Shown here in pieces: positions 1 through 34,265 of a stretch of 64,000 nt of DNA. Source of the stretch: an uncultured Chloroflexota bacterium (lineage in GTDB: Bacteria; Chloroflexota; Dehalococcoidia; CAUJGQ01). A model generated the notes under the pieces. It did no database searches and was not told the DNA's origin. It saw nothing but the letters and a program-made list of their open reading frames with translations. The stretch is from positions 1 to 64,000 of the forward strand of contig CALFMN010000231.1 in NCBI GenBank assembly GCA_937879875.1. Reading direction: 5' to 3'. The translations under genes were made by a program, and so were the position numbers. Each line of letters opens with the position of its first letter. The stretch's first letter is position 1.

Positions 1-57
1 TCTGTCGTGAGCGTGACTCCCGCACCGTAGGCGATAATGGTCACTGTAGTACTAGAA

Positions 58-90
58 CGTGCTCCCCTATACCCTGTTCCCTATTCCCGA
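58..90. repeat. heptad-periodic repeat (CCCTATA/CCCTGTT/CCCTATT); G3N4 tracts on minus strand overlapping argG stop
   Basis: Direct reading: ccctataccctgttccctattccc; reverse complement gives GGGAATAGGGAACAGGGTATAGGGG. Confidence 0.6.
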
Positions 91-1382
91 CCGACGTGCC
101 GCGCCCGCTCGGCGGCCCACATGTGCAGCGCCTGCACGTCGATAAAGCCACGCGCCTTGCGCGGGTCGAAGCCAGAGCCGGTCATGTCGTTGAAGGAGAC
201 GAGGCCAGGATCGTAGAGCGAGGCCGCGCTCCAGCGCGCCACCGGCAGCACCGCGCCCTTGTACAGGCGTACCAGCGACCAGCCGTTCACCCGCTGCTGG
301 TCTTCCGCCAGCGCGGCGAGGTAGCGGCGCAGCTCCTGCGAGAACCAGCCGCCGTTGTAGATCAGCCGCGCCAGCCGCGGCGCCTGCGCGTACTTCTCGT
401 CCAGCACGGGGCCGTCCTGCACGATCCCTTCGAGGTCGGCGTGCGCGGCTTCGAGCAACGTGTGCCCCGGCGCCTCGTAGACGCCGCGCGACTTCAACCC
501 GACATAACGGTGCTCCACCATGTCGAGCAGGCCGACGCCGTGACGTCCGGCCAGCGTGTCCGCCGCCGTGAAGACGCGCACCAGGTCGCCTTCCACCGCG
601 GCCTGCAGGGCGTTGCCGCGTTCGTCCAGCACTTCGAGCCGCACGGGCACGCCGCGCTCGAACCGGACTTTTGCGAACTCCGGCGCGTCCGGCGCGCGGC
701 GCGGGTCGGTCAGCCGCGTGTAGATGACCTTGTCGACGTGCGACTCTTCGGGCTGTTCAAGCGCCATGCCCTCGGAGGAGATGTGCAGCAGGTTCTCGTC
801 CTGGCTATAGGGGTCGGGCTTGTCGGAGCCGCCGGAGGGTACAGGCACGTTCATCGCTTCGAGATAGGCGCGCATCACCTGCCGGCCGCCGTTGCCGAAA
901 CGGGCGAGAAAGGTGTCGTCCTTCCACGGCGCGAAGACTTCGAGGTTGTCGATGTGGTATTGCGGGTCGGCGTTGAGCACCAGCCAGGTCGTCTCGAAGC
1001 GTACCTGGTCGTTGCCCTTGCCCGTTGAACCGTGTGTGAGCACCGTCGCGCCGTACTGCTTCGCCAGGCGCATGGCGGCGCGGGCGGTGGGATAGCGGGC
1101 GAGCGAGGTGCCGAGCAGGTAGCGCCCTTCGAGCTTGGCGTGCGCTTGCATCGCCGGCAGAAAGAACTCTTCGAGCAACTCCTTGCGCAGATCGATCGCC
1201 TCGTGCGCGGCAGCGCCGATGTCGCGCGATTTTTCCGCGGCGACGGCGAGGCTGTCCGACTCGCGCTGGCCGAGGTTGGCGGTGAAAGTGATGACCTCCC
1301 AGCCCTGCTCTTTGACCATCCAGGTGAGAATCGCGCTCGTATCGAGCCCGCCGCTGAACGCCAGCACCGCGCGTTTGGGCAT
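81..1382 (-). CDS. argG: argininosuccinate synthase
   Basis: AFSGGLDTS N-type ATP pyrophosphatase motif, about 430 aa; GGGAGGA RBS 5 nt upstream of ATG at 1382 (the longer ORF to 1406 lacks an RBS). Confidence 0.9.
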   Translation of the reverse strand: MPKRAVLAFSGGLDTSAILTWMVKEQGWEVITFTANLGQRESDSLAVAAEKSRDIGAAAHEAIDLRKELLEEFFLPAMQAHAKLEGRYLLGTSLARYPTARAAMRLAKQYGATVLTHGSTGKGNDQVRFETTWLVLNADPQYHIDNLEVFAPWKDDTFLARFGNGGRQVMRAYLEAMNVPVPSGGSDKPDPYSQDENLLHISSEGMALEQPEESHVDKVIYTRLTDPRRAPDAPEFAKVRFERGVPVRLEVLDERGNALQAAVEGDLVRVFTAADTLAGRHGVGLLDMVEHRYVGLKSRGVYEAPGHTLLEAAHADLEGIVQDGPVLDEKYAQAPRLARLIYNGGWFSQELRRYLAALAEDQQRVNGWSLVRLYKGAVLPVARWSAASLYDPGLVSFNDMTGSGFDPRKARGFIDVQALHMWAAERARHVGRE

Positions 1383-1446
1383 CTTCGTCCTCCCCATCTC
1401 CGTCAATGTTCCGTCCGGCGCGGCTCAGACGGAAGAGGGGAGGCGA

Positions 1447-1668
1447 GCCCTCACCCCCTCCCCTCTCCCAATCCTGGGCGAGGGGCGAGCCGGCGTGAAG
1501 CGGCCCGAGAGGTCGTCGGGTTACCCGATGCGCCGCCGTAGGCGTTCCGGAACGGCATCTGCCATCACCTGGGAGCGCAACGCCTTCTGGAACGCCCTCC
1601 CAAGGATCGCCCCTCTCCCTCTCCCAGGATTGGGAGAGGGAGAGGGGACGGGGGTGAGGGTGAGGGCC
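1447..1668. mobile_element. MITE-like element family A, copy 1 (left and right ~50 bp TIRs, each with CCCCTCTCCCA-ATCC-TGGGAGAGGGG hairpin)
   Basis: Left end GAGCCCTCACCCCCTCCCCTCTCCCAATCCTGGGCGAGGGGCGAGCC and its inverted partner at 1604-1668; internal ~110 nt. Confidence 0.6.
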
Positions 1669-1672
1669 GCGC

Positions 1673-2890
1673 CTACGACGGCTGCTGGTCGGCGAACAGG
1701 TGCAGGTCGAGATGCACGTGCGAATCGACCGACTGCACCACGGGCACGCTGGGCGGCTGCATGCCGAAGTCCTGCATCTGGAAGTCGGTGCTGACGACGG
1801 CTTCGAGCTTGCCGCCGGCCTCCTGCGCCTGGCCCGTCCAGGTGAGCGTCCTGTCCACGCCGTGGATGTTCATCGTGCCCGTGATCGAGACGTTGACCTG
1901 ATCGCCCTCCTTATAGGAGGTCGGGAAGCCGTCGATGCTCGCGATCGTGAACGTCGCATTGGGGAACTGCGCGACTTGCAGGACGTTCTGCTTGATGAAG
2001 CGATCGCGCGGCGCCGCGTCGCTGGTGAGTGTGCTCAGATCCACGATCAACACCGAGGGCGGGTTCGGCGCCAGCCCCTTGCCGGGCTGCAGGTAGAAGT
2101 TGCCTGTTACCGCGTTGGTCTTGCCGATCGCGTCGCTCGGAGCCGGCAGCCGCGTCAGCTTCTCGTGCACGGTGTACGCGGCCTGCGACTGCGGGTTGAC
2201 GGCAAAGTGCAGCGGGCCGGCCGCTGCCGCGGGCGAGGCGGGGGCGGGCGTTGCCGGCGCGGCGGCGCTGCCGCTTGCCGGATTCTGACCGGATGCGGGC
2301 GCGGCGCCCTGCGCCGGAGCTGCCTGCGTGGCCGCGGGCGGCACGGCCAGCTTCGTCAGCGCGAAATGCACCTTCGGCTCGCGGTCGGCCACGGTGACGG
2401 CGACGCCGACGGCGATCGCGGCGGCGACTGCCACGGGCGCGGCCAGTCGCCACGGCGCCCGCAGTCCGACGATCGCCAGGAAGAGCGCGGCGCCGCCCAG
2501 CGCCACGATCAGCGTGAGTGGAATGGCGAGCGACGGCAGCCGGTTGGCGAGGTCGCGCTCCGGCCCGGCGAAGATCACGCTGCCGAGGACCGCGACCACA
2601 AGCGCCGCGCTCAGCAGCCAGATCGCCGCCCGGCCGCCGCGCCGCGCCAGCGCTCCGTAGAGCAGCCCGCCCAGCAGCCAGAGCACCAGCGCCCCGCCCG
2701 CGATCGTGTAGCCGTTGATCACCGCGCGGTCGGTGACGCCGGCCCAGCGCCGCAACGGCACGCAGATCAGCGTGCCGACGATACCGATCGCGCCGCCCGC
2801 GACGAGGCCCGCGCCGAGCGCCCGCGTGAGGGCATTTTCACGCGGCGTTTGCCACGCGGAAACACGCGTTCGTTCCATCGTTCCCGCCAT
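1673..2890 (-). CDS. membrane-anchored YceI-like (polyisoprenoid-binding) domain protein
   Basis: N-terminal TM helices, Ala/Pro-rich linker, C-terminal YceI-like domain (FPNATFTIASIDG...VSITGTMNIHGV). Confidence 0.7.
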   Translation of the reverse strand: MAGTMERTRVSAWQTPRENALTRALGAGLVAGGAIGIVGTLICVPLRRWAGVTDRAVINGYTIAGGALVLWLLGGLLYGALARRGGRAAIWLLSAALVVAVLGSVIFAGPERDLANRLPSLAIPLTLIVALGGAALFLAIVGLRAPWRLAAPVAVAAAIAVGVAVTVADREPKVHFALTKLAVPPAATQAAPAQGAAPASGQNPASGSAAAPATPAPASPAAAAGPLHFAVNPQSQAAYTVHEKLTRLPAPSDAIGKTNAVTGNFYLQPGKGLAPNPPSVLIVDLSTLTSDAAPRDRFIKQNVLQVAQFPNATFTIASIDGFPTSYKEGDQVNVSITGTMNIHGVDRTLTWTGQAQEAGGKLEAVVSTDFQMQDFGMQPPSVPVVQSVDSHVHLDLHLFADQQPS

Positions 2891-3204
2891 ACCGCCGAAC
2901 CTCCCGACCGTTCCCGAACCGTATCACGCCGCTGGCCGTAGCTGGTTAAAGCCTTGTTACCAAAAGTAAGCGTCACGAATGCGGCGTTGCGTCTCTGTGG
3001 AGATAACGGTGTGCGCGGCTTCTGGGATGCATCCGCCTGTGCATGCGCCCGACCGGCCGACGTAGTTTCTCGGCAGGTGGCACCAGGTCGGCAGCCTCAC
3101 GCCACTGCGCCGGCGGCAATGCGCGCCCGTCGCATGTCGCGCGGCTGCCGTGTTTCAGCGGGTTGGAGGCTAAGCCGGGCCGCGTCGGCGAGCGACGGAC
3201 GGCG

Positions 3205-3663
3205 TCAGCGGCCAGAAGAAGGCGCTGCCGCCGGCGCCGCGGCCAGCCGCTGCATCGCTATCGGCGCGTAGGTACGCACTTCGATCTCGTTCTCGTCCGG
3301 GTCGCGGAAGTAGACGCTGACGCCGTTGCCGTGCGCCCCCCAGCGCCGGGCCGGGCCGGTATAGACGTCGATGCCCTGTCCGCGCAGATGCTCGGCAACG
3401 GGCTCCAGTGTCTCATCCGCGATCACCAGGCAGAAGTGGTTGAGGTTGGTGACACGGCTCTCGCGTTCGACGGAATTTTGCAGTTGCACCAGGTCGATCA
3501 GGGTGTCGGCGCTCAGGCGCACGGAAGGGAAGCCGATCGTGCCGGCGCGCCACTCCTCCAGCCGCTCGATGCCCAGGCCGAGCACGTCGCGGTAGAAGGC
3601 GATGCTGCGCTCGACATCGGCCACGTTGAGTACGATGTGGTCCATTCCCAGTACGGTGAGCAT
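3205..3663 (-). CDS. VOC/glyoxalase family protein
   Basis: HIVLNVADVERSIAFYRDVLG glyoxalase-fold N-terminus; 152 aa. Confidence 0.75.
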   Translation of the reverse strand: MLTVLGMDHIVLNVADVERSIAFYRDVLGLGIERLEEWRAGTIGFPSVRLSADTLIDLVQLQNSVERESRVTNLNHFCLVIADETLEPVAEHLRGQGIDVYTGPARRWGAHGNGVSVYFRDPDENEIEVRTYAPIAMQRLAAAPAAAPSSGR

Positions 3664-3953
3664 AGTCTTCCTCCAGGTCGTTCAGCCGCGCTTGCCGTGC
3701 AGTATAGAACCATAACATCGCTATGCGTTGCACAGCGCCTGATCAGCGACACCAGATCGAGCCGCGTTCTTGTAACAAATTCTTCGCAAGGTCGTATACA
3801 CTGGCTGCATCGAGGCCGCAGCGCATTACAGGTATGCTGTTCAGGCGGCTTTAGACCTGGTTTCAAGACCGGCGGTTAGAATTTATCGAGTGCTCAGGAA
3901 TGGGGCAACGGGCCGGTTTTGAAACCGTCTGTTATTGAGGAACATCTGCGTAT

Positions 3954-4145
3954 ATGGACAGCTTCTACTGTGTTGGCTGCCGGGCGCTGCTTCCGCAGTC
4001 GCGGCTTGGCCGCCTCATCGACGCGGCTCATCTGAACGGCGCGCCGGCCGGCTTCTGTCGTAGCTGTCTGCCGAAGCAGCTGCCCGAGTTGGCCGGCGAA
4101 GGCGATGGCGATGATGACGAACGCGACGGCGCGTTGAGCGCGTGA
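3954..4145 (+). CDS. small Cys4 zinc-ribbon protein (hypothetical)
   Basis: 63 aa with CVGC...CRSC; high GC3; sits in 565-bp AT-richer intergenic region; RBS spacing is marginal. Confidence 0.25.
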   Translation: MDSFYCVGCRALLPQSRLGRLIDAAHLNGAPAGFCRSCLPKQLPELAGEGDGDDDERDGALSA

Positions 4146-4229
4146 ACGAGAGCGGGTAGACGCCCGCCGGCCCGGCTGCGATGCTACCCCGCGGCAGGGT
4201 GTGGCCGCCGCCGCGGCGGGAGGGCAGGC

Positions 4230-4892
4230 GTGGACTTCGTCTTCGTGCGACACGGCATTACCGAGAACCTGGAAGGCGGGCGCATCCAGGGCTGGTCGCC
4301 GGCGCCGCTGTCCGCGCGCGGCCGCCAGCAGGCCGAGGCCGCGGCGAAGCGCCTCACGGCCGAGGGCAGCGCCGAGGCGCTCTACAGCAGCCCGGTGGCT
4401 CGCACGCTGGAGACGGCCAGCATCATCGGCGCCGAGCTGGAGCTGCCGGTGCAGCTGCTGCCCGGGCTGGCCGAGCGTCGCATGCCCAGCCGTTTCTGGG
4501 GTCTGCGCCGCGATGAGATTACCGACTATCTGGATGAGTTCGCCAAACACACGCGCGAGCCGGACTGGGCGTACGAAGACGAGGATTCGCTGCGCACGAT
4601 CATCGAACGGGCGCGCACGGTCGTGGACTTCCTGCACGAGCAGGCCGCGACACCCGGCCGCGCGGTGCTGGTGACGCACGGCACGATCCTGCGCTTCATC
4701 GTCGCCACGCTGCTGCTGGGCGAGGCCGCGCCGCCGGCGGCCTACGCCGACCTGCACGATTCGCTGCTCGGCCCGCAGCCCTGCGCTTTCGCCGAGGTCA
4801 CGCTCGGCCCGAAGCGCATGGCGATGCGCGGCTGGAACGACACCAACCACCTTGCCGGCCTGCTGGACTTCGACGGCGGGCCTGGGGCGTGA
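4230..4892 (+). CDS. histidine phosphatase family (phosphoglycerate mutase-like) protein
   Basis: FVRHG...RGRQQAEAAAKRL N-terminal RHG motif; 220 aa. Confidence 0.75.
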   Translation: MDFVFVRHGITENLEGGRIQGWSPAPLSARGRQQAEAAAKRLTAEGSAEALYSSPVARTLETASIIGAELELPVQLLPGLAERRMPSRFWGLRRDEITDYLDEFAKHTREPDWAYEDEDSLRTIIERARTVVDFLHEQAATPGRAVLVTHGTILRFIVATLLLGEAAPPAAYADLHDSLLGPQPCAFAEVTLGPKRMAMRGWNDTNHLAGLLDFDGGPGA

Positions 4893-4896
4893 AAGG

Positions 4897-4931
4897 GGTG
4901 AATGGGGAATGGTGAGTAGTGAGTGGTGAAC
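4897..4931. repeat. heptad-periodic repeat (GGTGAAT/GGGGAAT/GGTGAGT/AGTGAGT/GGTGAAC)
   Basis: Direct reading immediately after stop of histidine phosphatase gene. Confidence 0.55.
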
Positions 4932-5029
4932 GGGAGCCGGCCGCGGGCTCCGGGTTCCGACTCCGGTACGGCGCGCTGCGGGTCGCGGCTGCGCCGCGAG
5001 GGGCGCATGCCATGCGCCCCTACACTCAT

Positions 5030-5084
5030 TCCTCCGCCCTCTATTCCCTGTTCCCTAACCTCTATTCCCTCCGGCTCCCTCCGG
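5030..5084. repeat. heptad-periodic C3N4 repeat (CCTCTAT/TCCCTGT/TCCCTAA...); G3N4 on minus (mRNA) strand spanning stop of enoyl-CoA hydratase
   Basis: cctccgccctctattccctgttccctaacctctattccctccggctccctccgg; stop codon rc at 5062-5064 lies inside it. Confidence 0.6.
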
Positions 5085-5946
5085 CGCGGTAGTCGCCGTA
5101 TGGGCCGTCGCGCCAGGCGAGCGCCTCTTTGAGGCCGCCGCCGCTCTTCATTGAGTCGGCCACCTTCTCCTGCCAGAGATAGCCCTGGCCCGTGAACTGG
5201 TACATCGCGTCGGTATCGGTGGCCGTATGCACGGCGTTGGCGATGCCCATCGCCTCATAGAAGCAGTTGATCGAGCGCTTGATCACCGCCAGCGAGTCGC
5301 CGGTCTGAATGCCGATGCGCTCGGCCCAGCGCAGCGTCGTCGCCTCCAGCTCGTCCGCCGGCACAGCGGCGTTGATCAGGCCGATGCGCGCCGCCTCGCG
5401 CGCGTCGATCGAGTCGCCCGTATACATCAGCTCGTAGGTCTTGCGCATGCCGATCACCAGCGGCAGGATCGCGCAGGTGCGCGAAGTGCCGAGGCCGCGA
5501 ACGCCAGGATGGCCGAAGCGCGCGTCCTCGGCGGCGATCACGATGTCGTGCATCATCGCGAACTCGAGGCCACCCGCGATCGCGTAGCCGTGCACCTGCG
5601 CGATCGTCGGTTTGGCGATGTTGAACAGGTAGAGCTGAAAATCGGAGACGCGCACCATGTTGGTGCGGATCGTGCTCACTGAGCGGCGCTGGTTGTTTTG
5701 CATCGCCGGATACTGGCGGCGCGGGCCGGGTGTCAGGTCGTAGCCGGCGGAGAAGGTGCGGCCGGCGCCGCGCACGACGATCACGCTGACGCCGGGATCG
5801 TCCTCGGCCTCCTCCAGCGCACGGCGGAACTCCTGCAGCAGCTCGAAGCTGAGCGAGTTCATCTTCTCCGGCCGGTTGAGCGTAATCCGCGCGACGCGTT
5901 CGTTCGCGCCGATCTTCTCGTAGGTCAGGTTCTCAAACTCGGGCAT
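5062..5946 (-). CDS. enoyl-CoA hydratase/isomerase (crotonase family)
   Basis: ITLNRPEKMNSLS...SAGYDL crotonase signature; ATG with GGAGG RBS. Confidence 0.85.
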   Translation of the reverse strand: MPEFENLTYEKIGANERVARITLNRPEKMNSLSFELLQEFRRALEEAEDDPGVSVIVVRGAGRTFSAGYDLTPGPRRQYPAMQNNQRRSVSTIRTNMVRVSDFQLYLFNIAKPTIAQVHGYAIAGGLEFAMMHDIVIAAEDARFGHPGVRGLGTSRTCAILPLVIGMRKTYELMYTGDSIDAREAARIGLINAAVPADELEATTLRWAERIGIQTGDSLAVIKRSINCFYEAMGIANAVHTATDTDAMYQFTGQGYLWQEKVADSMKSGGGLKEALAWRDGPYGDYRAGGSRRE

Positions 5947-6021
5947 GGTTGAGCCTCCGGCGCGGGCAGTGGGCAGCAGGCAGTCGGGAGACCGCCCGCG
6001 CCATCGTGCCCGACCCGCGAA

Positions 6022-6708
6022 TTACGGCGAATCGCCGTTCACAGGCGTTGTAGCAGATTCGCGCCGCGACCGCAGCCATCCGCCGACCTCGATGAACGCC
6101 GCGCGGCGCTCGGCGGTAAGCCGGGCGACGCGGCCGCTCGTCGAGGGGACCACGAACACGACGATGCTATCCCAGTCTTCCGGCTGTCGACCCCAGCAGG
6201 CGCGCGGACGTCCCGCGAAGGCGCGAAAAGCCGTGTCGCCCACGAAACAGACGGCGGCCGGCCGAAACAGCCGCAGCCGCGCGGCCAGCGCCGCGCCGCC
6301 CGCGCGCCATTCGGCCGCGGTCACATCGCCCGTGCCGGCGGAAGGTCGCGCGACCACGTCCGTCAGCCCGACGCCGAGGTCGAGCAGGGCCGCATCTTCA
6401 TCCGGACGAAACAGGCGCGGCGTGATGCCTGCTTCGGCTAAAAGCGGCCAGAAGGCGTTGCCCGGCCGCGCGAAGTAGTGCCCGACGGCGGCCGAGAACA
6501 GCCCCGGATTGCAGCCGCAGAGCACGAGGTCGAGGCCGGGCCGCAGGTACGAGGGGAGAGGGTGAAGAGTGAGTGGTGAATGGTGAGTGGGGATAGCCGT
6601 CTGGCGACCACTCGCTGCACAAACGCCGCCAGCGCGATCGCCGCCGTATGGGTTTGCATGGGGCGCCGACGTACGGAATGCCTTCAAAGCACGATCACTC
6701 TTCACCAC
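6022..6708 (-). CDS. mug: G/U mismatch-specific DNA glycosylase (Mug/UDG family 2); start uncertain
   Basis: PGLDLVLCGCNPGLFSAAVGHYFARPGNAFW matches Mug LAPGLRVVFCGINPGLSSA; about 42 aa N-terminal extension read through a heptamer repeat; GTG at 6708 or a later non-canonical start. Confidence 0.65.
   Translation of the reverse strand: MVKSDRALKAFRTSAPHANPYGGDRAGGVCAASGRQTAIPTHHSPLTLHPLPSYLRPGLDLVLCGCNPGLFSAAVGHYFARPGNAFWPLLAEAGITPRLFRPDEDAALLDLGVGLTDVVARPSAGTGDVTAAEWRAGGAALAARLRLFRPAAVCFVGDTAFRAFAGRPRACWGRQPEDWDSIVVFVVPSTSGRVARLTAERRAAFIEVGGWLRSRRESATTPVNGDSP
6555..6592. repeat. heptad-periodic repeat (GGTGAAG/AGTGAGT/GGTGAAT/GGTGAGT) inside/upstream of mug 5' end
   Basis: Direct reading; encodes THHSPLTLHP if translated. 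Confidence 0.55.
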
Positions 6709-6721
6709 TCACCACTCACCA
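6697..6721. repeat. heptad-periodic repeat (TTCACCA/CTCACCA/CTCACCA), inverse orientation of 6555-6592 copy
   Basis: Between the hydratase stop (6722) and the mug GTG start. Confidence 0.55.
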
Positions 6722-7600
6722 CTACGCCCGCGGCTTGCTCTCCGCCGTGCGATAGTCGCGGAACGGGCCGTCGCGCCAGTCGAGCGCGGCCTTGAGGCCC
6801 TTCTCGCGCAGGATCGTGCCGAACATCTTGCCGCTGGGCCGATACGTGCTCAGCGCCTGGATGTCGGCGCCGGCGGCCAGCGCCGTGCGGATGCCCATCA
6901 CCTCGTAGGCGCGGTTGCAGCCGCGCTTCGACATTTGCAGCATGTCGCTTTCGATGTTGGCGATGCGCGCGGCGAAGCGCTCGGTCTCTTCCGCGAGCTG
7001 ATCCGCCGGATAGGCGCGGTTCGCCCAGCCGATGCGCACCGCCTCTTCGCCGCTGATCGAGTCGCCGGTGTAGAGCAGCTCGCGCGCCTTGCGCATCGGC
7101 ATGTGCCAGGGGTGGTAGACCATGTCCACCGTGGTCATCGCGCGCACCGGCGGATAGCCGAGAATCGCGTCTTCGGCGACGAACATCAGGTCGCAGAAGG
7201 TCGCCAGCTCGGTGCCGCCGGCGAGGCAGTAGCCATGCACCTGGGCGATCACAGGCTTGGCCAGCTCCCAGATCTGCCAGTAGCCGGAGAGCAGGTGCTG
7301 CGGCCACTGGCCCTGGCCCGGATGAATCGGACCGACGGCGGGCAGGCCGGAGCGGGTGTCTTGATACTGGCTCACGTCGTCGGTCTGGTTCGCGCCGCCG
7401 AGGTCGTAGCCGGCGGAGAAGGCACGCCCGGAGCCGCGGATGATGGCAACGCGCACGTCGGCGTCGGCTTCTGCGCTCTTCAGCGCGTCGAAGACCTCGG
7501 AGCGCAGCCGGTGTGAGAGCGCGTTCATCTTCTCCGGCCGGTTGAGGGTAATGATCGCCAGCCGGTCCTTCGTTTCGTAGAGGATGTCGCTGTAGCCCAT
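6722..7600 (-). CDS. enoyl-CoA hydratase/isomerase (crotonase family), paralog
   Basis: ITLNRPEKMNALS...SAGYDL; start MGYSDIL at 7600 with AAGGAGG RBS; the track ORF extends further upstream without support. Confidence 0.85.
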   Translation of the reverse strand: MGYSDILYETKDRLAIITLNRPEKMNALSHRLRSEVFDALKSAEADADVRVAIIRGSGRAFSAGYDLGGANQTDDVSQYQDTRSGLPAVGPIHPGQGQWPQHLLSGYWQIWELAKPVIAQVHGYCLAGGTELATFCDLMFVAEDAILGYPPVRAMTTVDMVYHPWHMPMRKARELLYTGDSISGEEAVRIGWANRAYPADQLAEETERFAARIANIESDMLQMSKRGCNRAYEVMGIRTALAAGADIQALSTYRPSGKMFGTILREKGLKAALDWRDGPFRDYRTAESKPRA

Positions 7601-7926
7601 CGCTGCCTCCTTGCTGCCGGATGGGAAGGCACCTTGCCGGCACTGCCGCCCGCCGGCTTGCCGCGCCGGCGGAGCACGTTGCTCGGCCAGCTCTCCGAAG
7701 ACCGGCGCCGTGATGACTGGCTGCCGGCCATGCCCAGTATAGGCACGAAGCGACACTGAGCGCAGACCACCGCATGCCGCGGTTCGGGAATGGCTCTGCG
7801 ATCAGTTGTTCATATCTGCAGATCCGCGCTTGACACGCGTACGTAGAATACCTGCACACGCGGCGCCCGCGCGGCCAGAGGGAAACCGTTGCGGCGGCGG
7901 CGCGCCATGAGCGGGAGGCGGCCGGC

Positions 7927-8154
7927 ATGCTGGTGCGCGACGTGCGCTGCATGGCCTGCGCCCGTCTGCTCGGGCGCTGGGTGATCCTCGACGACCGCCG
8001 GCAGGGGATGCTGCCGCCGACGAAGGGCGAGGCGATCATGGCCTGCCGCGTGGGTAACGCGCTGCGCTGCAAACACTGCCGAGGCCGCGCCTATTTAGAA
8101 GAAGCTGAGCGTGGTGATGCCGTTCTGCAATCGCTGATGGAGAGCGGGCAGTAG
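7927..8154 (+). CDS. small Com-like Cys4 zinc-ribbon protein (hypothetical)
   Basis: VRCMACARLL...RCKHCRG resembles the Mu Com RC-x2-C-x-K/R-LL pattern; GGGAGG RBS 9 nt upstream. Confidence 0.3.
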   Translation: MLVRDVRCMACARLLGRWVILDDRRQGMLPPTKGEAIMACRVGNALRCKHCRGRAYLEEAERGDAVLQSLMESGQ

Positions 8155-8198
8155 CGGCGGAGACATGGCCTCCGGACGGCCGGTCTTGCAGCCTTCTC

Positions 8199-8861
8199 TC
8201 ATGGCACGAAGTGCAGCAGTTTCGCCTCTGCCTGCTGGACGAATGCCCGCGTCAGCGCGGTGTCCGGTCCCGGCGGCGCCGCGATCTGCGCCACCAGCGC
8301 GACCGTGTCTCCGTGGCGGAAGAACACGAGGTCAGCCGCGAGGGGCTGGCGTGCGTTGCCAGCAGTCAACCGTTCGGCCAGCGAGTCGTCGGCCAGACGC
8401 GGGAAGACCAGCGGCGCCGGCGTCCAGTCGATTGAGCCGCCGGCCGGAACCGGCGTGCTCAAGCGGCGGCAACCGCGCAGCACCGTACCCAGCCGCGAGA
8501 ACGCCGGGCTTCCGCCGTCCGCTGCCCGGGTAATGCGCTCGATGCCCCACGGCCCGCTGTCGCCTTTGCTGAACGCGGCCTCCGCCGCCGCGCCGCTTTC
8601 GCGCAGCAGCGACTGTCCGTCGCAGCGCAGATCGCCCAGACTGATGGGAGCGGCCGACACCGGCATCCAGCCGCCGGACAACTGCCCGGCGGCAATGAGC
8701 GCCGCGACGGCCGGAGTTCCAGCCGCAATCGGCGTGCCGGCTGACCCTGTTGCTCTCCCGGAAGCCGCATTGCGTTTGGCTCCGCCACAGGCTACGGATA
8801 CGGCTGCCACGATCGCGAGGGCCGCAACTGTGTTCCACCGCTGCACCCGGCGTCTCCTCAT
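8199..8861 (-). CDS. secreted/lipoprotein-like hypothetical protein
   Basis: MRRRRVQRWNTVAALAIVAAVSVACGG signal/lipobox-like N-terminus; normal composition. Confidence 0.5.
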   Translation of the reverse strand: MRRRRVQRWNTVAALAIVAAVSVACGGAKRNAASGRATGSAGTPIAAGTPAVAALIAAGQLSGGWMPVSAAPISLGDLRCDGQSLLRESGAAAEAAFSKGDSGPWGIERITRAADGGSPAFSRLGTVLRGCRRLSTPVPAGGSIDWTPAPLVFPRLADDSLAERLTAGNARQPLAADLVFFRHGDTVALVAQIAAPPGPDTALTRAFVQQAEAKLLHFVP

Positions 8862-9579
8862 TCCCCGGACCACGCCGCTGCGATGCGGGCGTACTCGAAG
8901 GGTACGGGCAGTTGGTATGAAGACAACAGCGGTGGCGGGCGATCGCGCCGACGCGCTGAGACGCCTCTCAGCGGGCGCGAATCCGCCCAATGGCTCGTGA
9001 ATACCACTAGAGCCGCTGCACCGGCCTGAAATGCGAATAGAGCGTGTCGCGGGGATCGGTGCGGGTACCGGCACGCGGCCAGCGTTGTATCGGCGCCAGG
9101 CGGGCGTACACCCGGCGCCGCGACGCATGACTTGCACGCGAATGGGCCAGCGGTGAGGCAATCGCGTGATGATAACGATTCGGTAACGGCCCCTGCGCCG
9201 CGCGACCGCCATGGGCGATGCTCATACTGCCGGCTGAGCGCAGGCATTCGCCCCGCCGGTGAGCATGAGTCTTGCCACCAGCGGCTGCTCGACTCGCGGC
9301 GCCGTACCGCAGGCTGGCCGCCCTTCCTCCCGCGAACGTCATAGGACGCCGCTCCCCGCGCATCTATGACTGGTGGGAGACGACACGCTGCCGGCGCCCC
9401 CTCGTACGGCGGCTCCCGCCCCTGCCCGGCGCTTCGGCGTCTGGCGGGGGCGGCGCCGTTCTCCGGCGCACCGAGAGGCCGGCAGACGTGCGCTCTCTGC
9501 CCTCGCTGCGAGACCTTACGCGCAGCCAGGCATGGCACGAACGGCTTCCGCGCGGTTCAATGGAAGCGGGAGCAGCGGC

Positions 9580-10092
9580 ATGCGGCGAATCCGGAAGCTG
9601 TTGCGGCGTGGAGTGCTGTTGCGTTGTCCGAGCTGCGGCAAGGCGACGCTGGTGCGCGGCGTGCTGTGCGTGCACCAGCGCTGCCGCGTCTGCGGCCTCG
9701 CCTTCGAGCATGACGAGGGCTTCTTCCTCGGCGCCCTGATCGTGAACTACCTCTTCGCCTTCGTCTTCGGCATCCTGCCGGCGATCGTCGCGGTCGCCGG
9801 GGGCGCTTTGAGCGTGCGCGGTGCGATTCTCGTCGCCTTCGCCGCGGCCCTCTTGTTGCCCGTCGTGTTTTACTGGCACGCGAAGAGCCTGTGGATGGCG
9901 GTCTACTACCTCTTCGTGCCCGACGATCTACGCGCCGCTCGCCTCGAGGCGCTGGCGGCGATCGAGGGCGGACCGGGCACGGGCGAGGCCGCCGGTCCGC
10001 TGAGCGACGCCGAGCGCCAGCGCCGCCAACTCGAAGAGGCGCTGGCCGAACTCGAAGGCGGCAAGCCGGTGTACCGCCGCGGCGGGCGTTGA
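9580..10092 (+). CDS. DUF983 family membrane protein
   Basis: CPSCGK...CRVCG zinc-ribbon-like N-terminus followed by 2 TM helices; start at MRRIRKLL. Confidence 0.6.
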   Translation: MRRIRKLLRRGVLLRCPSCGKATLVRGVLCVHQRCRVCGLAFEHDEGFFLGALIVNYLFAFVFGILPAIVAVAGGALSVRGAILVAFAAALLLPVVFYWHAKSLWMAVYYLFVPDDLRAARLEALAAIEGGPGTGEAAGPLSDAERQRRQLEEALAELEGGKPVYRRGGR

Positions 10093-10256
10093 GGCGTGTG
10101 GCTCTCATACCATCGGATGGGTAGGGGCGCGTGCAACGCGCCTCGCAGCGCGCCGGTTCACCCGACACGCCTTGCCCGCTCAACGCAGGATCGCCCCTGT
10201 CGCCCGTTTCCACGATGTATTCAGATGCATCGGAGGAAAGGACGGGGTCAGGCGCC

Positions 10257-10320
10257 AGAGCGCAGCGCAACCGTCGGCGACTTTGGCCAGAGCGCAGCGC
10301 AACCGTCGGCGACTTTGAAT
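10257..10320. promoter_or_regulatory. tandem direct repeat 2 x AGAGCGCAGCGCAACCGTCGGCGACTTTG(AAT), about 100 nt upstream of amidohydrolase
   Basis: Exact tandem copies at 10257-10286 and 10287-10320; third copy at 11472-11501. Confidence 0.5.
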
Positions 10321-10421
10321 GAGGGCCGCCTCCCGCCTGATTGACCGCGCGCCGCCCGCCGGGGTTAACTACAGCCGTGGCGCGCCTTGCGGCGTTGCCT
10401 CTCAGACTCTCCCGGAGGCGT

Positions 10422-11429
10422 GCCGTGCCGGTCATCGACGTGCACAACCACTACACCACGGTGCCGGCGGCGCTGAACGTCTACCGCGCCGGCCAGATCA
10501 GCGGCGGCAATCAGCCCAGACCGTTCAAATCCAGCAGCATCAGCGACGAGGCGATCGTCGCCTCCGTCAAAGATAAGCAGATCGCGCACATGGCGATGAA
10601 AGGGATCGACCGCCTGATCTTCTCGCCGCAGGCCGGCGCGATGGGCCACCAGTTCGGCGGCGAAAAAGTCAGCCGCTACTGGACGCAGGCCTGCAACGAC
10701 ATGATTCACCGCGTCTGCACGCTCTTCCCGGACAAGCTCTCGCCCTCCTGCCAGTTGCCGCAGTCGCCGGGCGTGCCGCCCGAGCGCTGGCTCGACGAGC
10801 TGGAGTTCCGCGTCAACGAGCAGGGCTTCGTCGCCTGCAACGTCAACCCGGACATCTCCGGCGGTGCGCCGCCGTTCACACCGTCCGTTGCGGACGAATG
10901 GTGGTATCCCCTCTACGACAAGTTGCAGGAGCTGGATGTTCCCGGCCACATCCACGTCAGCGCCACGCTCAACCCCGCCTTTCATATGAACGGCTCGCAT
11001 TACATCGCCTGGCATCACACCGCGGCCTTCGAGATCATGTGGGCGGCCGAACGGATCTTCCACGACTTCCCGCGGCTGAAGCTGGTGATGTCGCACGGCG
11101 GCGGCGCGATGCTTTTGCAGCACAATCGCATCCGCTCGCTGTTCGAGGCGGCGGGCAGAGACTACGATTCGGCGGTCAAAAAGGTTACCTGGGACATGGC
11201 GGTCTACGAGCAGGAGACGATGGCGACGATGGTGCGCCTCGCCGGCGCCGACAGCCTGATGTTCGCCACCGAGATGTGGGGCACGGCGAACGTGATCGAC
11301 CCCAAGACGGGCAAATACTTCGACGACACGCTCGGCATGGTCAAGGCGCTCGGCCTCAGCGTGGAGGACGAGTACAAGCTGCTGGAGGGCAACGCCCGCC
11401 GGCTCTACAGCCGCGCGACGTTCGACTGA
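10422..11429 (+). CDS. amidohydrolase-2 family metal-dependent hydrolase (ACMSD-like TIM barrel)
   Basis: VIDVHNHY metal-binding motif at N-terminus; GTG start with GGAGG RBS. Confidence 0.8.
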   Translation, partial: AVPVIDVHNHYTTVPAALNVYRAGQISGGNQPRPFKSSSISDEAIVASVKDKQIAHMAMKGIDRLIFSPQAGAMGHQFGGEKVSRYWTQACNDMIHRVCTLFPDKLSPSCQLPQSPGVPPERWLDELEFRVNEQGFVACNVNPDISGGAPPFTPSVADEWWYPLYDKLQELDVPGHIHVSATLNPAFHMNGSHYIAWHHTAAFEIMWAAERIFHDFPRLKLVMSHGGGAMLLQHNRIRSLFEAAGRDYDSAVKKVTWDMAVYEQETMATMVRLAGADSLMFATEMWGTANVIDPKTGKYFDDTLGMVKALGLSVEDEYKLLEGNARRLYSRATFD

Positions 11430-11471
11430 CCGGCGATCAATGACGCCGCCCCGCATTGTAGGGGCGCCCAT

Positions 11472-11501
11472 AGCGCAGCGCAACCGTCGGAGACTTTGAA
11501 T
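11472..11501. promoter_or_regulatory. third copy of AGCGCAGCGCAACCGTCGGAGACTTTGAAT motif, about 90 nt upstream of aldolase
   Basis: Near-identical to the tandem copies at 10257-10320; similar spacing to the downstream start codon. Confidence 0.5.
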
Positions 11502-11591
11502 ACTGCGCCCGTCGCGGCAACGCCGCGACACACAGCGCGCGGAACGCAGATCCAGCAGGTGCCGAAGGCGGCACACCGGAAGGGGCGAGGC

Positions 11592-12455
11592 ATGAGCGAA
11601 ATCCCGCGGCTCAATGGCGTGATCGCGGCGCTGGAGGCGGGCAAGCCCGCGTTCACGACCTTCACGCCGCCCGACGTGGAGAGCGCCATCGCCCTCTCGC
11701 AGGCCGACTACGACGGCATCGTCTTCGAGATGGAGCACAATCCCTACGATGTCCGCGCCCTGCGCGACAGCCTGCAATACATGCTCAACCGCCGCCAGAT
11801 CGTCAGCAGCGGCACGCTGGCGCCGCGCGTCACGCCGATCGTGCGCATTCCGCCGAACGGCGTCGAACAGAACTCCTGGGTGGCCAAGCAGGTGCTCGAC
11901 CTCGGCGTCTACGGCGTCGTCTGGCCGCACGTGGGCACGGTCGAAGAGGCGCGCAACGCCGTCTCGGCCTGCCGCTACCCGCGACCGCCGGATGCGGAAC
12001 GCTACGATCCGCCCGGCCTGCGCGGCGACGCGCCCAACAACGCCGCGCGCTACTGGGGCCTGACGCAGCAGGAGTACTACGCCCGCGCTGATGTCTGGCC
12101 GCTGGCGCCGCAGGGCGAGATCCTGGCGATCATCATGATCGAGGAGGTGCGGGCGATCGAAAACCTGCCGCGCATCCTCAAAGAGGTGCCGGGCATCGGC
12201 GTGATCCTGATCGGCGAGGGCGATCTCTCGCAGGAACTCGGCCATCCACGCCAGTACGAGCACCCCGTGGTGCAGGAAGCGATCGGCCAGATCGTGAGTG
12301 TCTGCAAGGACCACAATGTGCCGGTCGGCCATCCACATGTTGATGAGAAGAACGTCGAGCGTGTGCTGGAGCAGGGCTTCCGCTTTTTGATGCCCGCGCC
12401 GGTCCGCAGCTACGGCGCGCTGACGAAGGGCCGCCAACTCGCCGGACGGGCCTGA
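11592..12455 (+). CDS. HpcH/HpaI-family aldolase (citrate-lyase beta-like)
   Basis: GIVFEMEHNPYD...IMIEEVRAIENL family motifs; start MSEIPRLNG with RBS. Confidence 0.8.
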   Translation: MSEIPRLNGVIAALEAGKPAFTTFTPPDVESAIALSQADYDGIVFEMEHNPYDVRALRDSLQYMLNRRQIVSSGTLAPRVTPIVRIPPNGVEQNSWVAKQVLDLGVYGVVWPHVGTVEEARNAVSACRYPRPPDAERYDPPGLRGDAPNNAARYWGLTQQEYYARADVWPLAPQGEILAIIMIEEVRAIENLPRILKEVPGIGVILIGEGDLSQELGHPRQYEHPVVQEAIGQIVSVCKDHNVPVGHPHVDEKNVERVLEQGFRFLMPAPVRSYGALTKGRQLAGRA

Positions 12456-12537
12456 TGGGCGAGCGCCGGCGGCTCCCGATCGCGAGGCCACTGGCGAACT
12501 CACGCACGCTCGCCAGCGCTGCATTGCAGGAGCCGCG

Positions 12538-13863
12538 ATGAGCGTCGCAGCCTCCCGGCCGCCGCTGCGCGACGCCTTTCGCGCGCTGAACACGCCGAAC
12601 TTCCGCCTGTTCTGGTCCGCGCAGCTCTTCTCGCAGATGGGCACGTGGATGCAGCGGCTCGCTCAGGCCTGGCTGGTGCTGAAGCTCACCAACTCGCCGC
12701 TGGCGCTGGGCACGATTACCACCGTGCAGTTCGCGCCGATCCTGTTCCTCTCGCTCGCGGGCGGCGTCTTCGCCGACCGGCTGCCGAAGCGCCGGCTGCT
12801 GTTCGCCACGCAGCTCACGCTGTTCGTGCAGGCGCTTGTGCTTGGCCTGCTGACGGCGGCGGGACGGATCACGATCCCGGAGATCTACCTGCTCGCGGCG
12901 ATCCTCGGCGTCGCCACGGCGATCGACACGCCGACGACGCAGGCCTTCACCGTCGAGCTGGCCGGCCGCGACGACCTGCCCAACGCGATTGCGCTCAACG
13001 CCACGCAGATGACCGCCGCGCGCATCACAGGTCCGGCGATCGCCGGCGTCGGCATCGCCGTGGTCGGCGTGTCCGGCTGCTTTCTGTTCAACGCGGTGAG
13101 CTATCTGGCGGTCGTGGTCTGCCTGCTGCTGCTGCGCGCCGACCGCATGTTCGCCGGCCGGCCGGCGAGCCACGGCGGCATCTTCGCGCAGTTGCGGGAG
13201 GGCATCTCCTTCTCGCTGACGACGCCGGACGTGGCGCTCGTGCTGCTGCTGATGGCGGCGCTGGGCACCTTCGGTTACAACTTCGCGGTCGTGCTGCCGC
13301 TGTTCGACCAATACGTGCTGCACGCGGGCTCGATCGTCTTCGGCCTGCTCAACGTGGCGATGGGAGCCGGCTCGTTGCTCGCCTCGCTGCATCTCGCCTA
13401 CCGCGGCCGGCCGGCGCGGCGCGCCCTGCTGCTGAGCGTGGCCGGCTTCAGCCTGCTGCTGCTGACGTTCGCCTATTCGCAGCGCGTCTGGCTGGCGATC
13501 CCGGTGCTGGTGCCGCTCGGTGTGTGCAGCATCGCCTTCTTGACGACGGGCCAGACGCGTCTGCAACTGGTCACGCCGGCGCAGATGCAGGGACGGGTGA
13601 TGAGCCTCTACCAGGTGCTGATCGGCGGCACCACGCCGATCGGCGCCACGCTGGTCGGCTTTCTGGCGCAGCGCTTCAACGTGCCGTTCGCCGTGACGTT
13701 GATGGCGATGCTCTGCGCGACGGGCGTCGGCATCGCCCTGCTCTACACGCGCCGCAACCAGGCGCGCATGACGCCGGACGACCAGATGTTGACCGTCGCT
13801 GCACTGCGGGCTGATGAGCAGCCCGCAGTGGCGGCGACGGCGCCCGCGGCCGCGTCGGGCTGA
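12538..13863 (+). CDS. MFS transporter
   Basis: 12-TM profile, FRLFWSAQLFSQMGTWMQ N-terminus typical of EntS-like MFS; AGGAG RBS. Confidence 0.85.
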   Translation: MSVAASRPPLRDAFRALNTPNFRLFWSAQLFSQMGTWMQRLAQAWLVLKLTNSPLALGTITTVQFAPILFLSLAGGVFADRLPKRRLLFATQLTLFVQALVLGLLTAAGRITIPEIYLLAAILGVATAIDTPTTQAFTVELAGRDDLPNAIALNATQMTAARITGPAIAGVGIAVVGVSGCFLFNAVSYLAVVVCLLLLRADRMFAGRPASHGGIFAQLREGISFSLTTPDVALVLLLMAALGTFGYNFAVVLPLFDQYVLHAGSIVFGLLNVAMGAGSLLASLHLAYRGRPARRALLLSVAGFSLLLLTFAYSQRVWLAIPVLVPLGVCSIAFLTTGQTRLQLVTPAQMQGRVMSLYQVLIGGTTPIGATLVGFLAQRFNVPFAVTLMAMLCATGVGIALLYTRRNQARMTPDDQMLTVAALRADEQPAVAATAPAAASG

Positions 13864-13879
13864 GCGCGGCGCGGCTATC

Positions 13880-13965
13880 GGCCCTCACCCCCGTCCCCTC
13901 TCCCAATCCTGGGCGAGGGGCGATCCGGCGTGTAGTGTTCCGTGGCCGGCGCGATTAACCGGATG
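13880..13965. repeat. MITE-like family A, solo left-end copy (copy 3)
   Basis: GGCCCTCACCCCCGTCCCCTCTCCCAATCCTGGGCGAGGGGCGATCC + GATTAACCGG tail; between convergent MFS and GT2 genes. Confidence 0.55.
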
Positions 13966-13996
13966 CCGGTGCGTGAAGCGGCCGGCCAGGCGAGCA

Positions 13997-15238
13997 TCAG
14001 GGCGAGCGCCTCAGCGTTTGCCCTTGTGGAGCGTTTTGCTCCCGCGGCGTCACGATGCGGCCGTCGCGGGCGATACGCAGGCGGCGCCCGCGCCAGACGA
14101 CGGTCGTGCTGCACAGGCTCCAGCAATACGCGGCGAGCAAGGCCGACATGGACAGCGGTAACAGCACGTAGCCGCTCGCGCGTGCACGCGTGCCGATGCC
14201 GGCGCGGCCGGTCAAAAGCGGCGAGGCGGCGGCGGCAAGTCCGAACACGGTTAGCGCACGCGCACGCTCGTGCATGGCGTCGCGTTGCAGCGGCAGCGAG
14301 GCAAGCGCCGCGAGCGGCAGCAGCCAGCCGAGCAGGATCAGGGCCATGCAGGCGTACTCGGCCGGCTTCATGCGGCGCAGCCCCACCAGCCAGCGCTGCC
14401 AGTGGCGCAGCAGTTCCGCCCAGCTCAGCGGCGCGGCCAGCACGTCCACCGGCCGGCGCAGCAGCGCACAACGCCAGCCCTGCCGCCGCAGCGCCCGCTC
14501 AAGCGCGATGTCTTCGGTGAGGAAGCGGCCGAGAGCGGCGAAGCCTCCGGCCGCGTCGACGCACTCGCGCCGCACGAGCATCAGCGTGCCCCAGAGGCCG
14601 TGCGCCCCGCGCAGTTGCGCCGACGCATACTCGAATGGCGCCAGCACGTTGTTGACGAGCACCTGCTCCAGCCGCGCCGGCAGCCCCGCGGCGAAGACGA
14701 TCTGCGGCGTGGCCGACACCGCGCCGGTCCGCTCGTCAATCGCGGCAGCGAAGCGACGCAGGGTGTCCCGGTCGGCCAGGGTATCTGAGTCGGAGATCAG
14801 CAGCCAGTCGTGGAGCGCGTCGGCAGCCGCGGCCGCCAGGTTGTGCGACTTGCCGTTCACGCCTGGGTCGGGGTTCGGCCCGGAGAGCACGCAGCGCACC
14901 TGTCCGGCGAACTCGCTGGCCAGGGCAACGGCGAGCGAGTACAGCGGTTCGGCCGCGTCCTCGAAGGCGAAGATCAACTCCCACCCCGCCGGATACTCGA
15001 GCATGCACCACGAACGAAACGCCGCTTCCGCCTGCGGTTCCGTTCCGTGCACCGGCTTGAGGATCGAAATCGGCGGGAAGAGCGTGGCAAGCGGCTCCGC
15101 CCCGTACCGGAAGCGGATCGCCAGCAGATCGCGCAACACAAGCCCGATCGCCACGCACAGCACCGCCTGCGCCAGCGCATCGCCATGCACCAGCCAGTGC
15201 AGCGCGCTACCCGCCGCTTCGCCCATGAGCGCCCGCAC
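13997..15238 (-). CDS. glycosyltransferase family 2 (ceramide glucosyltransferase-like)
   Basis: ISILKPVHG...SDSDT...LTEDIALE GT2/ceramide-GlcT motifs with C-terminal TM segments. Confidence 0.8.
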   Translation of the reverse strand: MRALMGEAAGSALHWLVHGDALAQAVLCVAIGLVLRDLLAIRFRYGAEPLATLFPPISILKPVHGTEPQAEAAFRSWCMLEYPAGWELIFAFEDAAEPLYSLAVALASEFAGQVRCVLSGPNPDPGVNGKSHNLAAAAADALHDWLLISDSDTLADRDTLRRFAAAIDERTGAVSATPQIVFAAGLPARLEQVLVNNVLAPFEYASAQLRGAHGLWGTLMLVRRECVDAAGGFAALGRFLTEDIALERALRRQGWRCALLRRPVDVLAAPLSWAELLRHWQRWLVGLRRMKPAEYACMALILLGWLLPLAALASLPLQRDAMHERARALTVFGLAAAASPLLTGRAGIGTRARASGYVLLPLSMSALLAAYCWSLCSTTVVWRGRRLRIARDGRIVTPREQNAPQGQTLRRSP

Positions 15239-15290
15239 CCTCCGCCCTCCGCCCTCTATTTCCTATTCCCTAACCCCTATTCCCTATCGG
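15236..15290. repeat. heptad-periodic C3N4 repeat in 5' UTR of GT2 gene (G-rich on mRNA strand; includes the SD)
   Basis: accctccgccctccgccctctatttcctattccctaacccctattccctatc. Confidence 0.6.
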
Positions 15291-15344
15291 CTACAATGCA
15301 CCGGCGGCACGGCGCGACCAACGCGCCAGCCGGGGAGCGGAGCC

Positions 15345-29325: not shown

Positions 29326-29334
29326 CCCGCCCTC

Positions 29335-33726: not shown

Positions 33727-33774
33727 GTTGATAAGATTAGTCCACTTTAGGGCGGGCTTGCCGGGGTTGAGGGA

Positions 33775-34257: not shown

Positions 34258-34265
34258 GGAGGGTC

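Follow-up and report, generated by a model that had tools for sequence, protein, structure and literature searches.

What are the heptad-periodic, G-rich repeats that lie across gene ends in an uncultured Chloroflexota bacterium, and what ties them to one strand? We examined a 64,000-nt stretch of its DNA (contig CALFMN010000231.1, positions 1 to 64,000; hereafter, the window), in which short tandem arrays of 7-nt units of the type G3N4 had been noticed at three sites: on the stop codon of argG, on the stop codon of an enoyl-CoA hydratase gene and in the 5′ untranslated region (UTR) of a GT2 gene. The original prediction held that the G-rich strand is in each case the sense strand of the gene touched by the array, and it proposed that the arrays act as RNA G-quadruplexes protecting transcript 3′ ends or tuning translation initiation. 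Our analysis indicates that the properties common to these arrays are a period of 7 nt and a transcript strand rich in G and poor in C—while the capacity to form a quadruplex is not common to all of them.

The period-7 signal is well above chance. Lag matches were counted in segments of 21 nt, as a strict 14-nt scoring was too stringent for degenerate arrays. With at least 17 matches out of 21, period 7 yielded 44 positions, compared with 0–2 for each other period between 3 and 12. At the looser threshold of at least 16 out of 21, six period-7 regions were detected against 0.42 in dinucleotide shuffles (shuffle maximum, 2), and period 6 was also above its own shuffles at this setting (5 regions vs. 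0.68). Strict patterns of three consecutive C3N4 or G3N4 units occurred 10 and 9 times, respectively, with about 0.6 expected, and TRF reported a period of 7 at 65–88, 6569–6590, 6702–6723, 15238–15287 and 34207–34259. The three heptad sites were recovered where they had been placed before—at 58–92, 5022–5084 and 15233–15292, all G-rich on the minus strand. Moreover, the array sequences are the same in two independent metagenome assemblies, L005 (ENA) and L006 (JGI), and an assembly artefact was rejected on this basis.

All eight arrays of the window (A1 to A8) lie at or between the boundaries of open reading frames (ORFs), and those that touch a stop codon share one orientation. A1 (58–92, minus strand) reads GGTC GGGAATA GGGAACA GGGTATA GGGG, or GGTCGGGAATAGGGAACAGGGTATAGGGGAGCACG in full from 92 to 58, and covers the end of argG, a minus-strand gene running from an ATG at 1382 to a TAG at 81–83; this stop is supplied by the first GGGAATAG unit, as its TAG. 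A2 (4886–4934, plus strand; GTGAATG GGGAATG GTGAGTA GTGAGTG GTGAA), which the original prediction had not included, begins on the stop TGA (4890–4892) of a histidine-phosphatase gene on the plus strand; the sense strand of that gene carries the G-rich sequence, which confirms the strand rule independently from the opposite strand. A3 (5022–5084, minus strand) is degenerate—GGAGGGAATAG AGGTTA GGGAACA GGGAATA GAGGGCG GAGGAAT from 5084 to 5022, or, phased by unit, GGGAATA GAGGTTA GGGAACA GGGAATA GAGGGCG GAGGAAT—and contains the enoyl-CoA hydratase stop TAG at 5062–5064. A6 (6690–6727, minus strand; TAG TGGTGAG TGGTGAG TGGTGAA GAGTGAT), likewise a new array, has no G3 tract and opens with the stop TAG (6722–6724) of a second enoyl-CoA hydratase gene. 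Finally, the array in the cys operon, A8 (34204–34268, plus strand), consists of 7.6 units of TAGGGCG; its first TAG is the stop (34207–34209) of an Rrf2-family gene, and its last unit is altered to GGAGGG, the Shine-Dalgarno sequence of a cysteine-synthase-like gene starting at 34266. A further (GGGCGTA)n array, held by the L006 assembly, opens on the stop of a DUF7064 gene. All six of these stop-touching arrays (A1, A2, A3, A6, A8 and the L006 array) are G-rich on the coding strand of the gene concerned. The same few units recur, with the GGGAATA type at three loci, the GGTGAGT type at three and GGGCGTA at two (window and L006), and C makes up only 4–12% of the sense strand in the better arrays. 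As a separate observation at the A3 locus, an exact 10-nt tandem duplication (TCCCTCCGGC, two copies, 5066–5085) lies within the last codons of the hydratase gene and lengthens the C-terminal tail of the protein to AGGSRRE*, compared with AARRE* in the relative L002.

The remaining arrays mark the limits of this rule. The weak array A4 (5962–5992, plus strand; CAGTGGG CAGCAGG CAGTCGG), located between the hydratase start and the stop of a UDG gene (6022–6525, minus strand, start at 6525), is C-rich on the mRNA strand and thus breaks the sense-strand rule; a (CCTACTG)15 array of L002 has a related unit. A5 (6556–6598, plus strand; GGTGAAG AGTGAGT GGTGAAT GGTGAGT GGGG) sits 31–73 nt upstream of the UDG start, with its G-rich strand being the non-coding one, and is the inverted partner of A6. 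Neither A4 nor A5 had been noted previously. A7 (15233–15292, minus strand) is a composite array in the spacer between GT2 (minus strand) and a divergent luciferase-like gene (plus strand, start at 15345). It combines a GGGAATA-type part (15256–15290: ATAGGGA ATAGGGG TTAGGGA ATAGGAA ATAGAGG) with three GGAGGGC-type units (15233–15256) that bear the GT2 Shine-Dalgarno sequence and start codon (GTG at 15238 or ATG at 15226). Its G-rich strand lies in the GT2 5′ UTR—an exception—but it is C-rich in the sense of the luciferase-like gene, 55 nt upstream of it, which fits the pattern of A4 and A5, both found upstream of starts and C-rich on the local mRNA. Because these two arrays are C-rich on the mRNA of the surrounding genes, the strand rule is strong but not absolute.

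To gain a broader view of this rule, metagenome contigs were scanned for GGGVRTAGGGVRTAGGGVRTAGGG, and at least 120 loci with G+C contents between 35% and 73% were retrieved, giving the 129 listed arrays on which the following counts are based. The genes around them were called with a heuristic codon-model finder that was checked on the window and gives reliable stops. Just 4 of the 129 arrays lay inside genes. The median gap to the neighbouring gene was 12.5 nt on the 5′ side of the G strand and 116.5 nt on the 3′ side, and 77 of 96 arrays were nearer to their 5′-side gene. Within 30 nt of the array 5′ end, we counted 57 genes on the same strand—i.e., with the array behind the stop in coding orientation—against 8 on the opposite strand, whereas only 6 genes, in any orientation, were found within 30 nt of the array 3′ end. 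Arrays C-rich in the sense of a gene were never closer than 29 nt to its stop, and the rule was present in all three G+C classes. The proposal that the G-rich strand is the sense strand at gene ends thus holds for all six stop-touching arrays and predominates in the metagenomic set (57 against 8), and it fails for A4 and A5. Furthermore, the array itself supplies the stop codon, as its own TAG or TGA: among 62 long ORFs ending at a listed array, 47 stop with TAG, and in 42 this TAG is in heptad phase. As every frame of the G strand contains TAG, an ORF that runs into an array is bound to stop within it. Arrays also come in pairs with a fixed order, since a second, inverted array within 250 nt was found downstream in 29 cases and upstream in none, always G-rich first and C-rich second; the pairs A2/A3 and A6/A5 of the window are likewise ordered.

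Several simple sources of this polarity were considered. A replication-strand bias was rejected, as arrays of opposite orientation can be only a few hundred bases apart (A2/A3 and A5/A6). The possibility that the rule is set by the strand with stops in all frames was also discarded, albeit on a small sample: in bystander arrays, the stop-frame orientation gave no asymmetry (11 of 24), while orientation by G-richness did (35 of 52). The rule is also independent of quadruplex capacity, because bystander heptad arrays lacking G3 tracts (n = 32) display the same position and strand preference, with 16 against 2 within 30 nt.

The quadruplex capacity of the arrays is in fact uneven. We defined the canonical motif as four consecutive (G≥3 N1–7) elements on the mRNA strand. 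By themselves, only A1 (64–88), A8 (with two motifs) and the GGAGGGC part of A7 (15232–15254) contain it; A2 fits the pattern only with two G tracts borrowed from the end of the coding sequence, and no four-tract motif with loops of up to 7 nt was found in A3, A5 or A6. G3 tracts are present in each unit of A1 and A8 and in most units of A7, in about half of the A3 units, largely not in A2 and A5, and in none of A6; arrays of the GGTGAGT type have an insufficient number of them for the motif, or lack them altogether. When A1 was folded alone in ViennaRNA, the energy was −11 kcal/mol with quadruplex terms and −1 kcal/mol without them, and the quadruplex was kept in context. A three-layer quadruplex formed part of the minimum-energy structure only for A1, with a tie for A8. 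Hence, the description of A1 as a canonical four-tract motif was correct, and the general reading of the arrays as RNA G-quadruplexes is only partly supported: it would apply to A1, A8 and part of A7 but not to A3, A5 and A6, nor to A2 without the help of coding G tracts. Across the window there are 13 canonical motifs (shuffles, 3.0 ± 1.9), each located at a gene boundary or between two of them; 7 of these 13 come from a separate element resembling repetitive extragenic palindromic (REP) sequences. One motif outside the heptad arrays, GGGCGGGCTTGCCGGGGTTGAGGG (33750–33773, plus strand), lies 2 nt before the start of the Rrf2-family gene (33775). Bystander sequences totalling about 0.9 Mb contained 49, 26, 7 and 6 strict G3N4 runs with three, four, five and six tracts, respectively; the excess at exactly four G3 tracts echoes the report of Rehm et al. 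(2015, PLoS One; PMC4692102).

The position of the arrays relative to transcript ends was analysed next to their folding. A classical terminator with a hairpin followed by T residues (GGCCGCC...GGCGGCGGCC GTTTT; L005 11383–11412) occurs about 65 nt beyond A1, and the argG mRNA most likely ends there rather than at the array. A3 is directly followed, on the mRNA strand, by a double-hairpin element of about 43 nt (4982–5024, minus strand; GTAGGGGCGCATGGCATGCGCCCC TCGCGGCGCAGCCGCGAC) made of a 10-bp GC palindrome and a second hairpin. The same element (GTAGGGGCGCATGGCATGCGCCCC TCGCGGCRCAGCCGCGAC) stands directly after the (GGGCGTA)n array in L006 (13412–13455), and in the relative L128 it carries an insertion of about 30 nt in the loop. 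With a terminator beyond A1 and a palindrome after A3, the arrays appear to lie within the 3′ UTR rather than to form the 3′ end. A scan of positions 1–16000 for consensus promoters and terminators identified nothing at the arrays, and no T tract follows the single arrays, in agreement with the earlier view that they are not classical terminators. Additionally, Rfam 15 returned no match at the gathering score on either strand of 1–36000. The earlier claim that direct repeats are unable to form hairpins applies to single arrays only: in the predicted fold of a read-through RNA, the G-rich array pairs with its inverted C-rich partner (A2/A3 and A6/A5), enclosing the intergenic hairpins, and the A6/A5 stem reaches −81.5 kcal/mol (z = −2.6). 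We also observed, on the far side of the argG terminator and shortly past the window edge at position 1, a sequence repeated in inverted orientation (CTAGGGCGTGTCTGAATAAT ... TTTTTCAGACACGCTCTAG; L005/L006 11447–11604). The two assemblies diverge completely into different gene sets immediately past this repeat, a point that could represent a strain-variable island or an assembly junction at the repeat.

We then compared the array sites with their counterparts in related genomes. According to the genome collection, the nearest relatives of the enoyl-CoA hydratase of the window are encoded by metagenome-assembled genomes of Dehalococcoidia and other Chloroflexota (82–83% identity), and ArgG homologues at 91–93% identity are annotated as Dehalococcoidia bacterium; GTDB places the source organism itself in the class Dehalococcoidia. 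Pfam supports the gene names given before, i.e., argG, ECH, GT2 and Rrf2 together with a PALP enzyme. No array was found at the hydratase stop in L001, L002 or L003 (82%, 83% and 63% identity), and REP-like hairpins take the place of the arrays in the orthologous convergent spacer of L002. Similarly, relatives at 93%, 91% and 84% ArgG identity have no array at the argG stop; at most, they show seeds of two or three units. The 93% relative, L128, carries GGGCGAGGGAACAGGGCGGTAA at this position, with its G3N4 units translated into the tail GEGTGR*. Because this relative reads its units as codons, an extra GGGAATAG unit seems to have created the earlier argG stop in the window. At the DUF7064 stop, the same relative has two units (GGGCGCA GGGAAGA), compared with seven in L006. 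No heptad array of any kind was detected in L128, L130 and L131, which span 45 kb together. Other relatives do possess arrays of their own, with units outside the G3N4 type: L002 contains fifteen CCTACTG/CCCACTG units (7240–7345), 65 nt upstream of a gene start, and L003 an inverted pair with G-rich then C-rich order (9753–9860; GTGCTGA and GAGCGAT units) adjoining a minus-strand gene start. The conservation check in related genomes that the original prediction had suggested was therefore negative, since arrays are missing from orthologous gene ends at 63–93% protein identity, and this lack of conservation argues against a locus-specific regulatory role. Judged from these comparisons, the arrays appear to be young, lineage-specific expansions of short seeds, as expected of simple-sequence repeats.

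Do the arrays belong to a known class of repeats? We are highly confident that they are members of the dispersed G-rich heptameric repeats known from Xanthomonas, Nostoc and Chloroflexus. Both the phenomenon and the quadruplex hypothesis have already been published for the first two genera, where GGGAATC in Xanthomonas and GGGGA(C/T)T in Nostoc are over-represented in non-coding DNA, with a preference for four units and 70–75 convergent inverted pairs per genome (PMC4692102). In the same study, unit numbers differed widely between close relatives, the neighbours were ordinary metabolic genes, and GGGAATC oligonucleotides formed quadruplexes in vitro, as seen by circular dichroism; the functional role “still remains to be elucidated” (PMC4692102). 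Our literature search for later mechanistic work on heptameric repeats found none in the library searched. The window arrays share with this class the tandem repetition of units of exactly 7 nt (with a G3 tract per unit in A1, A8 and most of A7), the non-coding dispersal, the position and strand rule and convergent inverted pairs. However, the loops here are AATA, AACA and CGTA instead of AATC or GAYT, the phylum is Chloroflexota, the units carry TAG or TGA so that the array supplies the stop codon, and arrays of the GGTGAGT type, in which G3 tracts are rare or absent, occur alongside the others and behave alike. A second group for comparison comprises the cyanobacterial short tandemly repeated repetitive (STRR) heptamers and the TAACTGA heptamers of Beggiatoaceae, cyanobacteria and Bacteroidetes (MacGregor 2015; PMC4679880). 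These are also dispersed intergenic tandem heptamers, with one or a few unit types per genome present in many copies, located near translation starts or stops, but their units are not G3-rich, and TAACTGA is found mainly directly upstream of starts in forward orientation, whereas the arrays described here lie mainly on stops. Closer in taxonomy, Chloroflexus aurantiacus contains 22 dispersed (GATAGRA)n satellite arrays (Subirana and Messeguer 2019; PMC6749651), which belong to the same phylum and consist of a purine-rich, C-free heptamer with ATAG; this unit lacks a G3 tract, and the arrays were catalogued without regard to gene position and strand. Finally, REP elements and terminator hairpins occupy the same niche—3′ UTRs and convergent spacers—and paired arrays can form long stems as well, but single arrays are direct repeats with neither self-complementarity nor a T tract. 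The arrays also differ from the contingency repeats of phase variation, since they lie outside ORFs and their neighbours are housekeeping or metabolic genes, including argG, enoyl-CoA hydratases, histidine phosphatase, UDG and cysteine synthase.

Taken as a whole, the explanation we tentatively prefer, while placing it just short of an even prospect, is that the arrays are made by slippage, kept behind stop codons and used as a generic RNA structural module. Replication slippage would make and resize the arrays, and these would survive only at sites where the mRNA has the G-rich sequence immediately after a stop codon. On the RNA, an array would constitute a segment unable to pair with itself, which may adopt a G-quadruplex if it contains four G3 tracts (as in A1, A8 and part of A7) and may otherwise pair with an inverted C-rich partner (A2/A3 and A6/A5), thereby forming a long stem over the intergenic terminator hairpins. 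Such a generic 3′-UTR or intercistronic module could slow 3′-to-5′ decay or read-through without being a gene-specific regulator. Within this explanation, the RNA-structure role is the more doubtful component, and we hold it as possible rather than probable. Several observations weigh against the proposal. That orthologous sites lack the arrays is just as compatible with an absence of function as with a generic one. No array-length polymorphism was seen between the two assemblies, which are identical, and a look-up with the Rrf2 protein for array-length variants returned only the same contig. The heuristic gene finder used for the metagenomic test misses some genes, and the presence of TAG in all three frames of the G strand inflates the count of arrays lying exactly on a stop. 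Moreover, classical hairpins stand behind several arrays, which are therefore not needed as protectors of the 3′ end.

One competitor is that slippage produces the arrays as neutral, functionless by-products, the bias arising since only the orientation with stops in all frames can overlap an ORF 3′ end; the C-rich orientation, open in all frames, would extend the protein by a long C-terminal tail. In many bacteria, heptamers outnumber all other long repeat units, a dominance ascribed to polymerase slippage (PMC4679880, PMC4692102). The fast turnover and growth from seeds speak for this possibility, as do the plain translation of G3N4 units at the argG end of the 93% relative, the 42 of 62 stops provided by the TAG of the array and the 29-nt distance that C-sense arrays keep from stops. 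A neutral model with such an orientation filter explains much of the data, but neither the clustering at stops nor the recurrence of units: G-sense arrays gather within about 15 nt of the stop although the spacer runs for a median of 128 nt further, and the same few units are found at many loci and across phyla. The absent asymmetry of the stop-frame orientation, next to the asymmetry seen with G-richness, and the excess of four-tract runs run counter to it as well, and we regard pure neutrality as rather unlikely. At the other extreme stands the notion that every array is a functional RNA G-quadruplex, protecting mRNA 3′ ends or tuning translation initiation of the neighbour. The canonical motifs of A1 and A8, with a quadruplex in or tied with the minimum-energy structure, argue for it, together with the A7 GGAGGGC motif overlapping the GT2 Shine-Dalgarno sequence and start, the excess of motifs over shuffles, with all of them at gene boundaries or between these, the four-tract excess and the in vitro folding of GGGAATC oligonucleotides (PMC4692102). 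Against it count the motif-free arrays A3, A5 and A6—the last without any G3 tract—the dependence of A2 on coding G tracts, the G3-free arrays that keep the rule, the CCTACTG and GTGCTGA units of relatives, the array-less orthologous sites, and an argG mRNA that most likely ends at its own terminator. In this universal form, the quadruplex explanation appears distinctly unlikely.

Two further mechanisms seem very improbable to us. In one of them, the arrays would be strand-asymmetric insulators for the termination factor Rho, with the G-rich sense RNA barring Rho loading and the C-rich antisense RNA loading it, so that convergent or antisense transcripts are halted before entering the ORF. Rho favours C-rich, G-poor, unstructured RNA, and C is as scarce as 4–12% on the array sense strand in a genome region of 68% G+C; furthermore, the G-then-C order of paired arrays is strictly polar (29 to 0), and a transcript running towards an ORF from outside consequently always carries the C-rich array. 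Arrays of 25–60 nt, however, are shorter than a typical Rho-loading site, and the same repeat class is abundant in cyanobacteria, which, to our knowledge, lack Rho. In the other mechanism, composite elements of a REP-like or miniature mobile type would carry the arrays as variable 5′ tails and bring them to gene ends by insertion instead of local expansion. The double-hairpin element found directly behind both A3 and the L006 (GGGCGTA)n array points in this direction, and so do several other dispersed hairpin repeats in the window, an L003 heptad array that abuts a REP-like element and the hairpins occupying the L002 convergent spacer in place of arrays. Nevertheless, A1, A6, A7 and A8 have no adjoining hairpin element, and neither a transposase nor a target-site duplication was seen. 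Since the DUF7064 site of L128 holds the hairpin element with just two heptad units, the array at this locus would have grown in place.

The window also contains other small repeats, listed here in their own right. The REP-like element mentioned above is about 50 nt long, with the sequence GCCCTCACCCCCGTCCCCTCTCCCAATCCTGGG(A/C)GAGGGGCGATC, a hairpin formed by CCCCTCTCCCA/TGGGAGAGGGG and a G-quadruplex-prone tail on the complementary strand. Four near-identical copies, with none expected, are located at 13882–13913, 19300–19331 and 33272–33303 (plus strand) and 29483–29514 (minus strand), degenerate copies at about 1445–1490, 1600–1672 and 29325–29400, and variants in L002, L003 and L128. In addition, an intergenic spacer harbours a perfect 32-bp tandem duplication (GCCAGAGCGCAGCGCAACCGTCGGCGACTTTG, two copies; 10254–10317), the core of which, AGCGCAGCGCAACCGTCGG.GACTT, recurs at about 11440–11470 (minus strand) and in the loop of the hairpin element of L128 (10785–10815). 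On account of this recurrence, the core represents a third small dispersed repeat. At least 80% of the window is coding.

A bolder interpretation of the whole repeat class would be that G-rich heptad arrays constitute a cross-phylum functional module anchored on stop codons, the strict polarity of which stems from a shared mechanism—this could be transcript-end formation assisted by quadruplexes or R-loops, or strand-asymmetric control of Rho loading. We consider this quite improbable; if true, the arrays would be a general and still unrecognised signal of bacterial gene boundaries. The function of heptameric repeats has been an open question since 1990, and the present locus brings no new way of testing it, as metagenomes are the only source of the organism; experiments are still better done in Xanthomonas or Nostoc. 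The window extends the known carriers of heptameric repeats to an uncultured lineage of Chloroflexota, and the metagenome sample yields a position and strand rule that, spanning loci of 35–73% G+C and units devoid of G3 tracts, points away from a purely quadruplex-based explanation of these elements.

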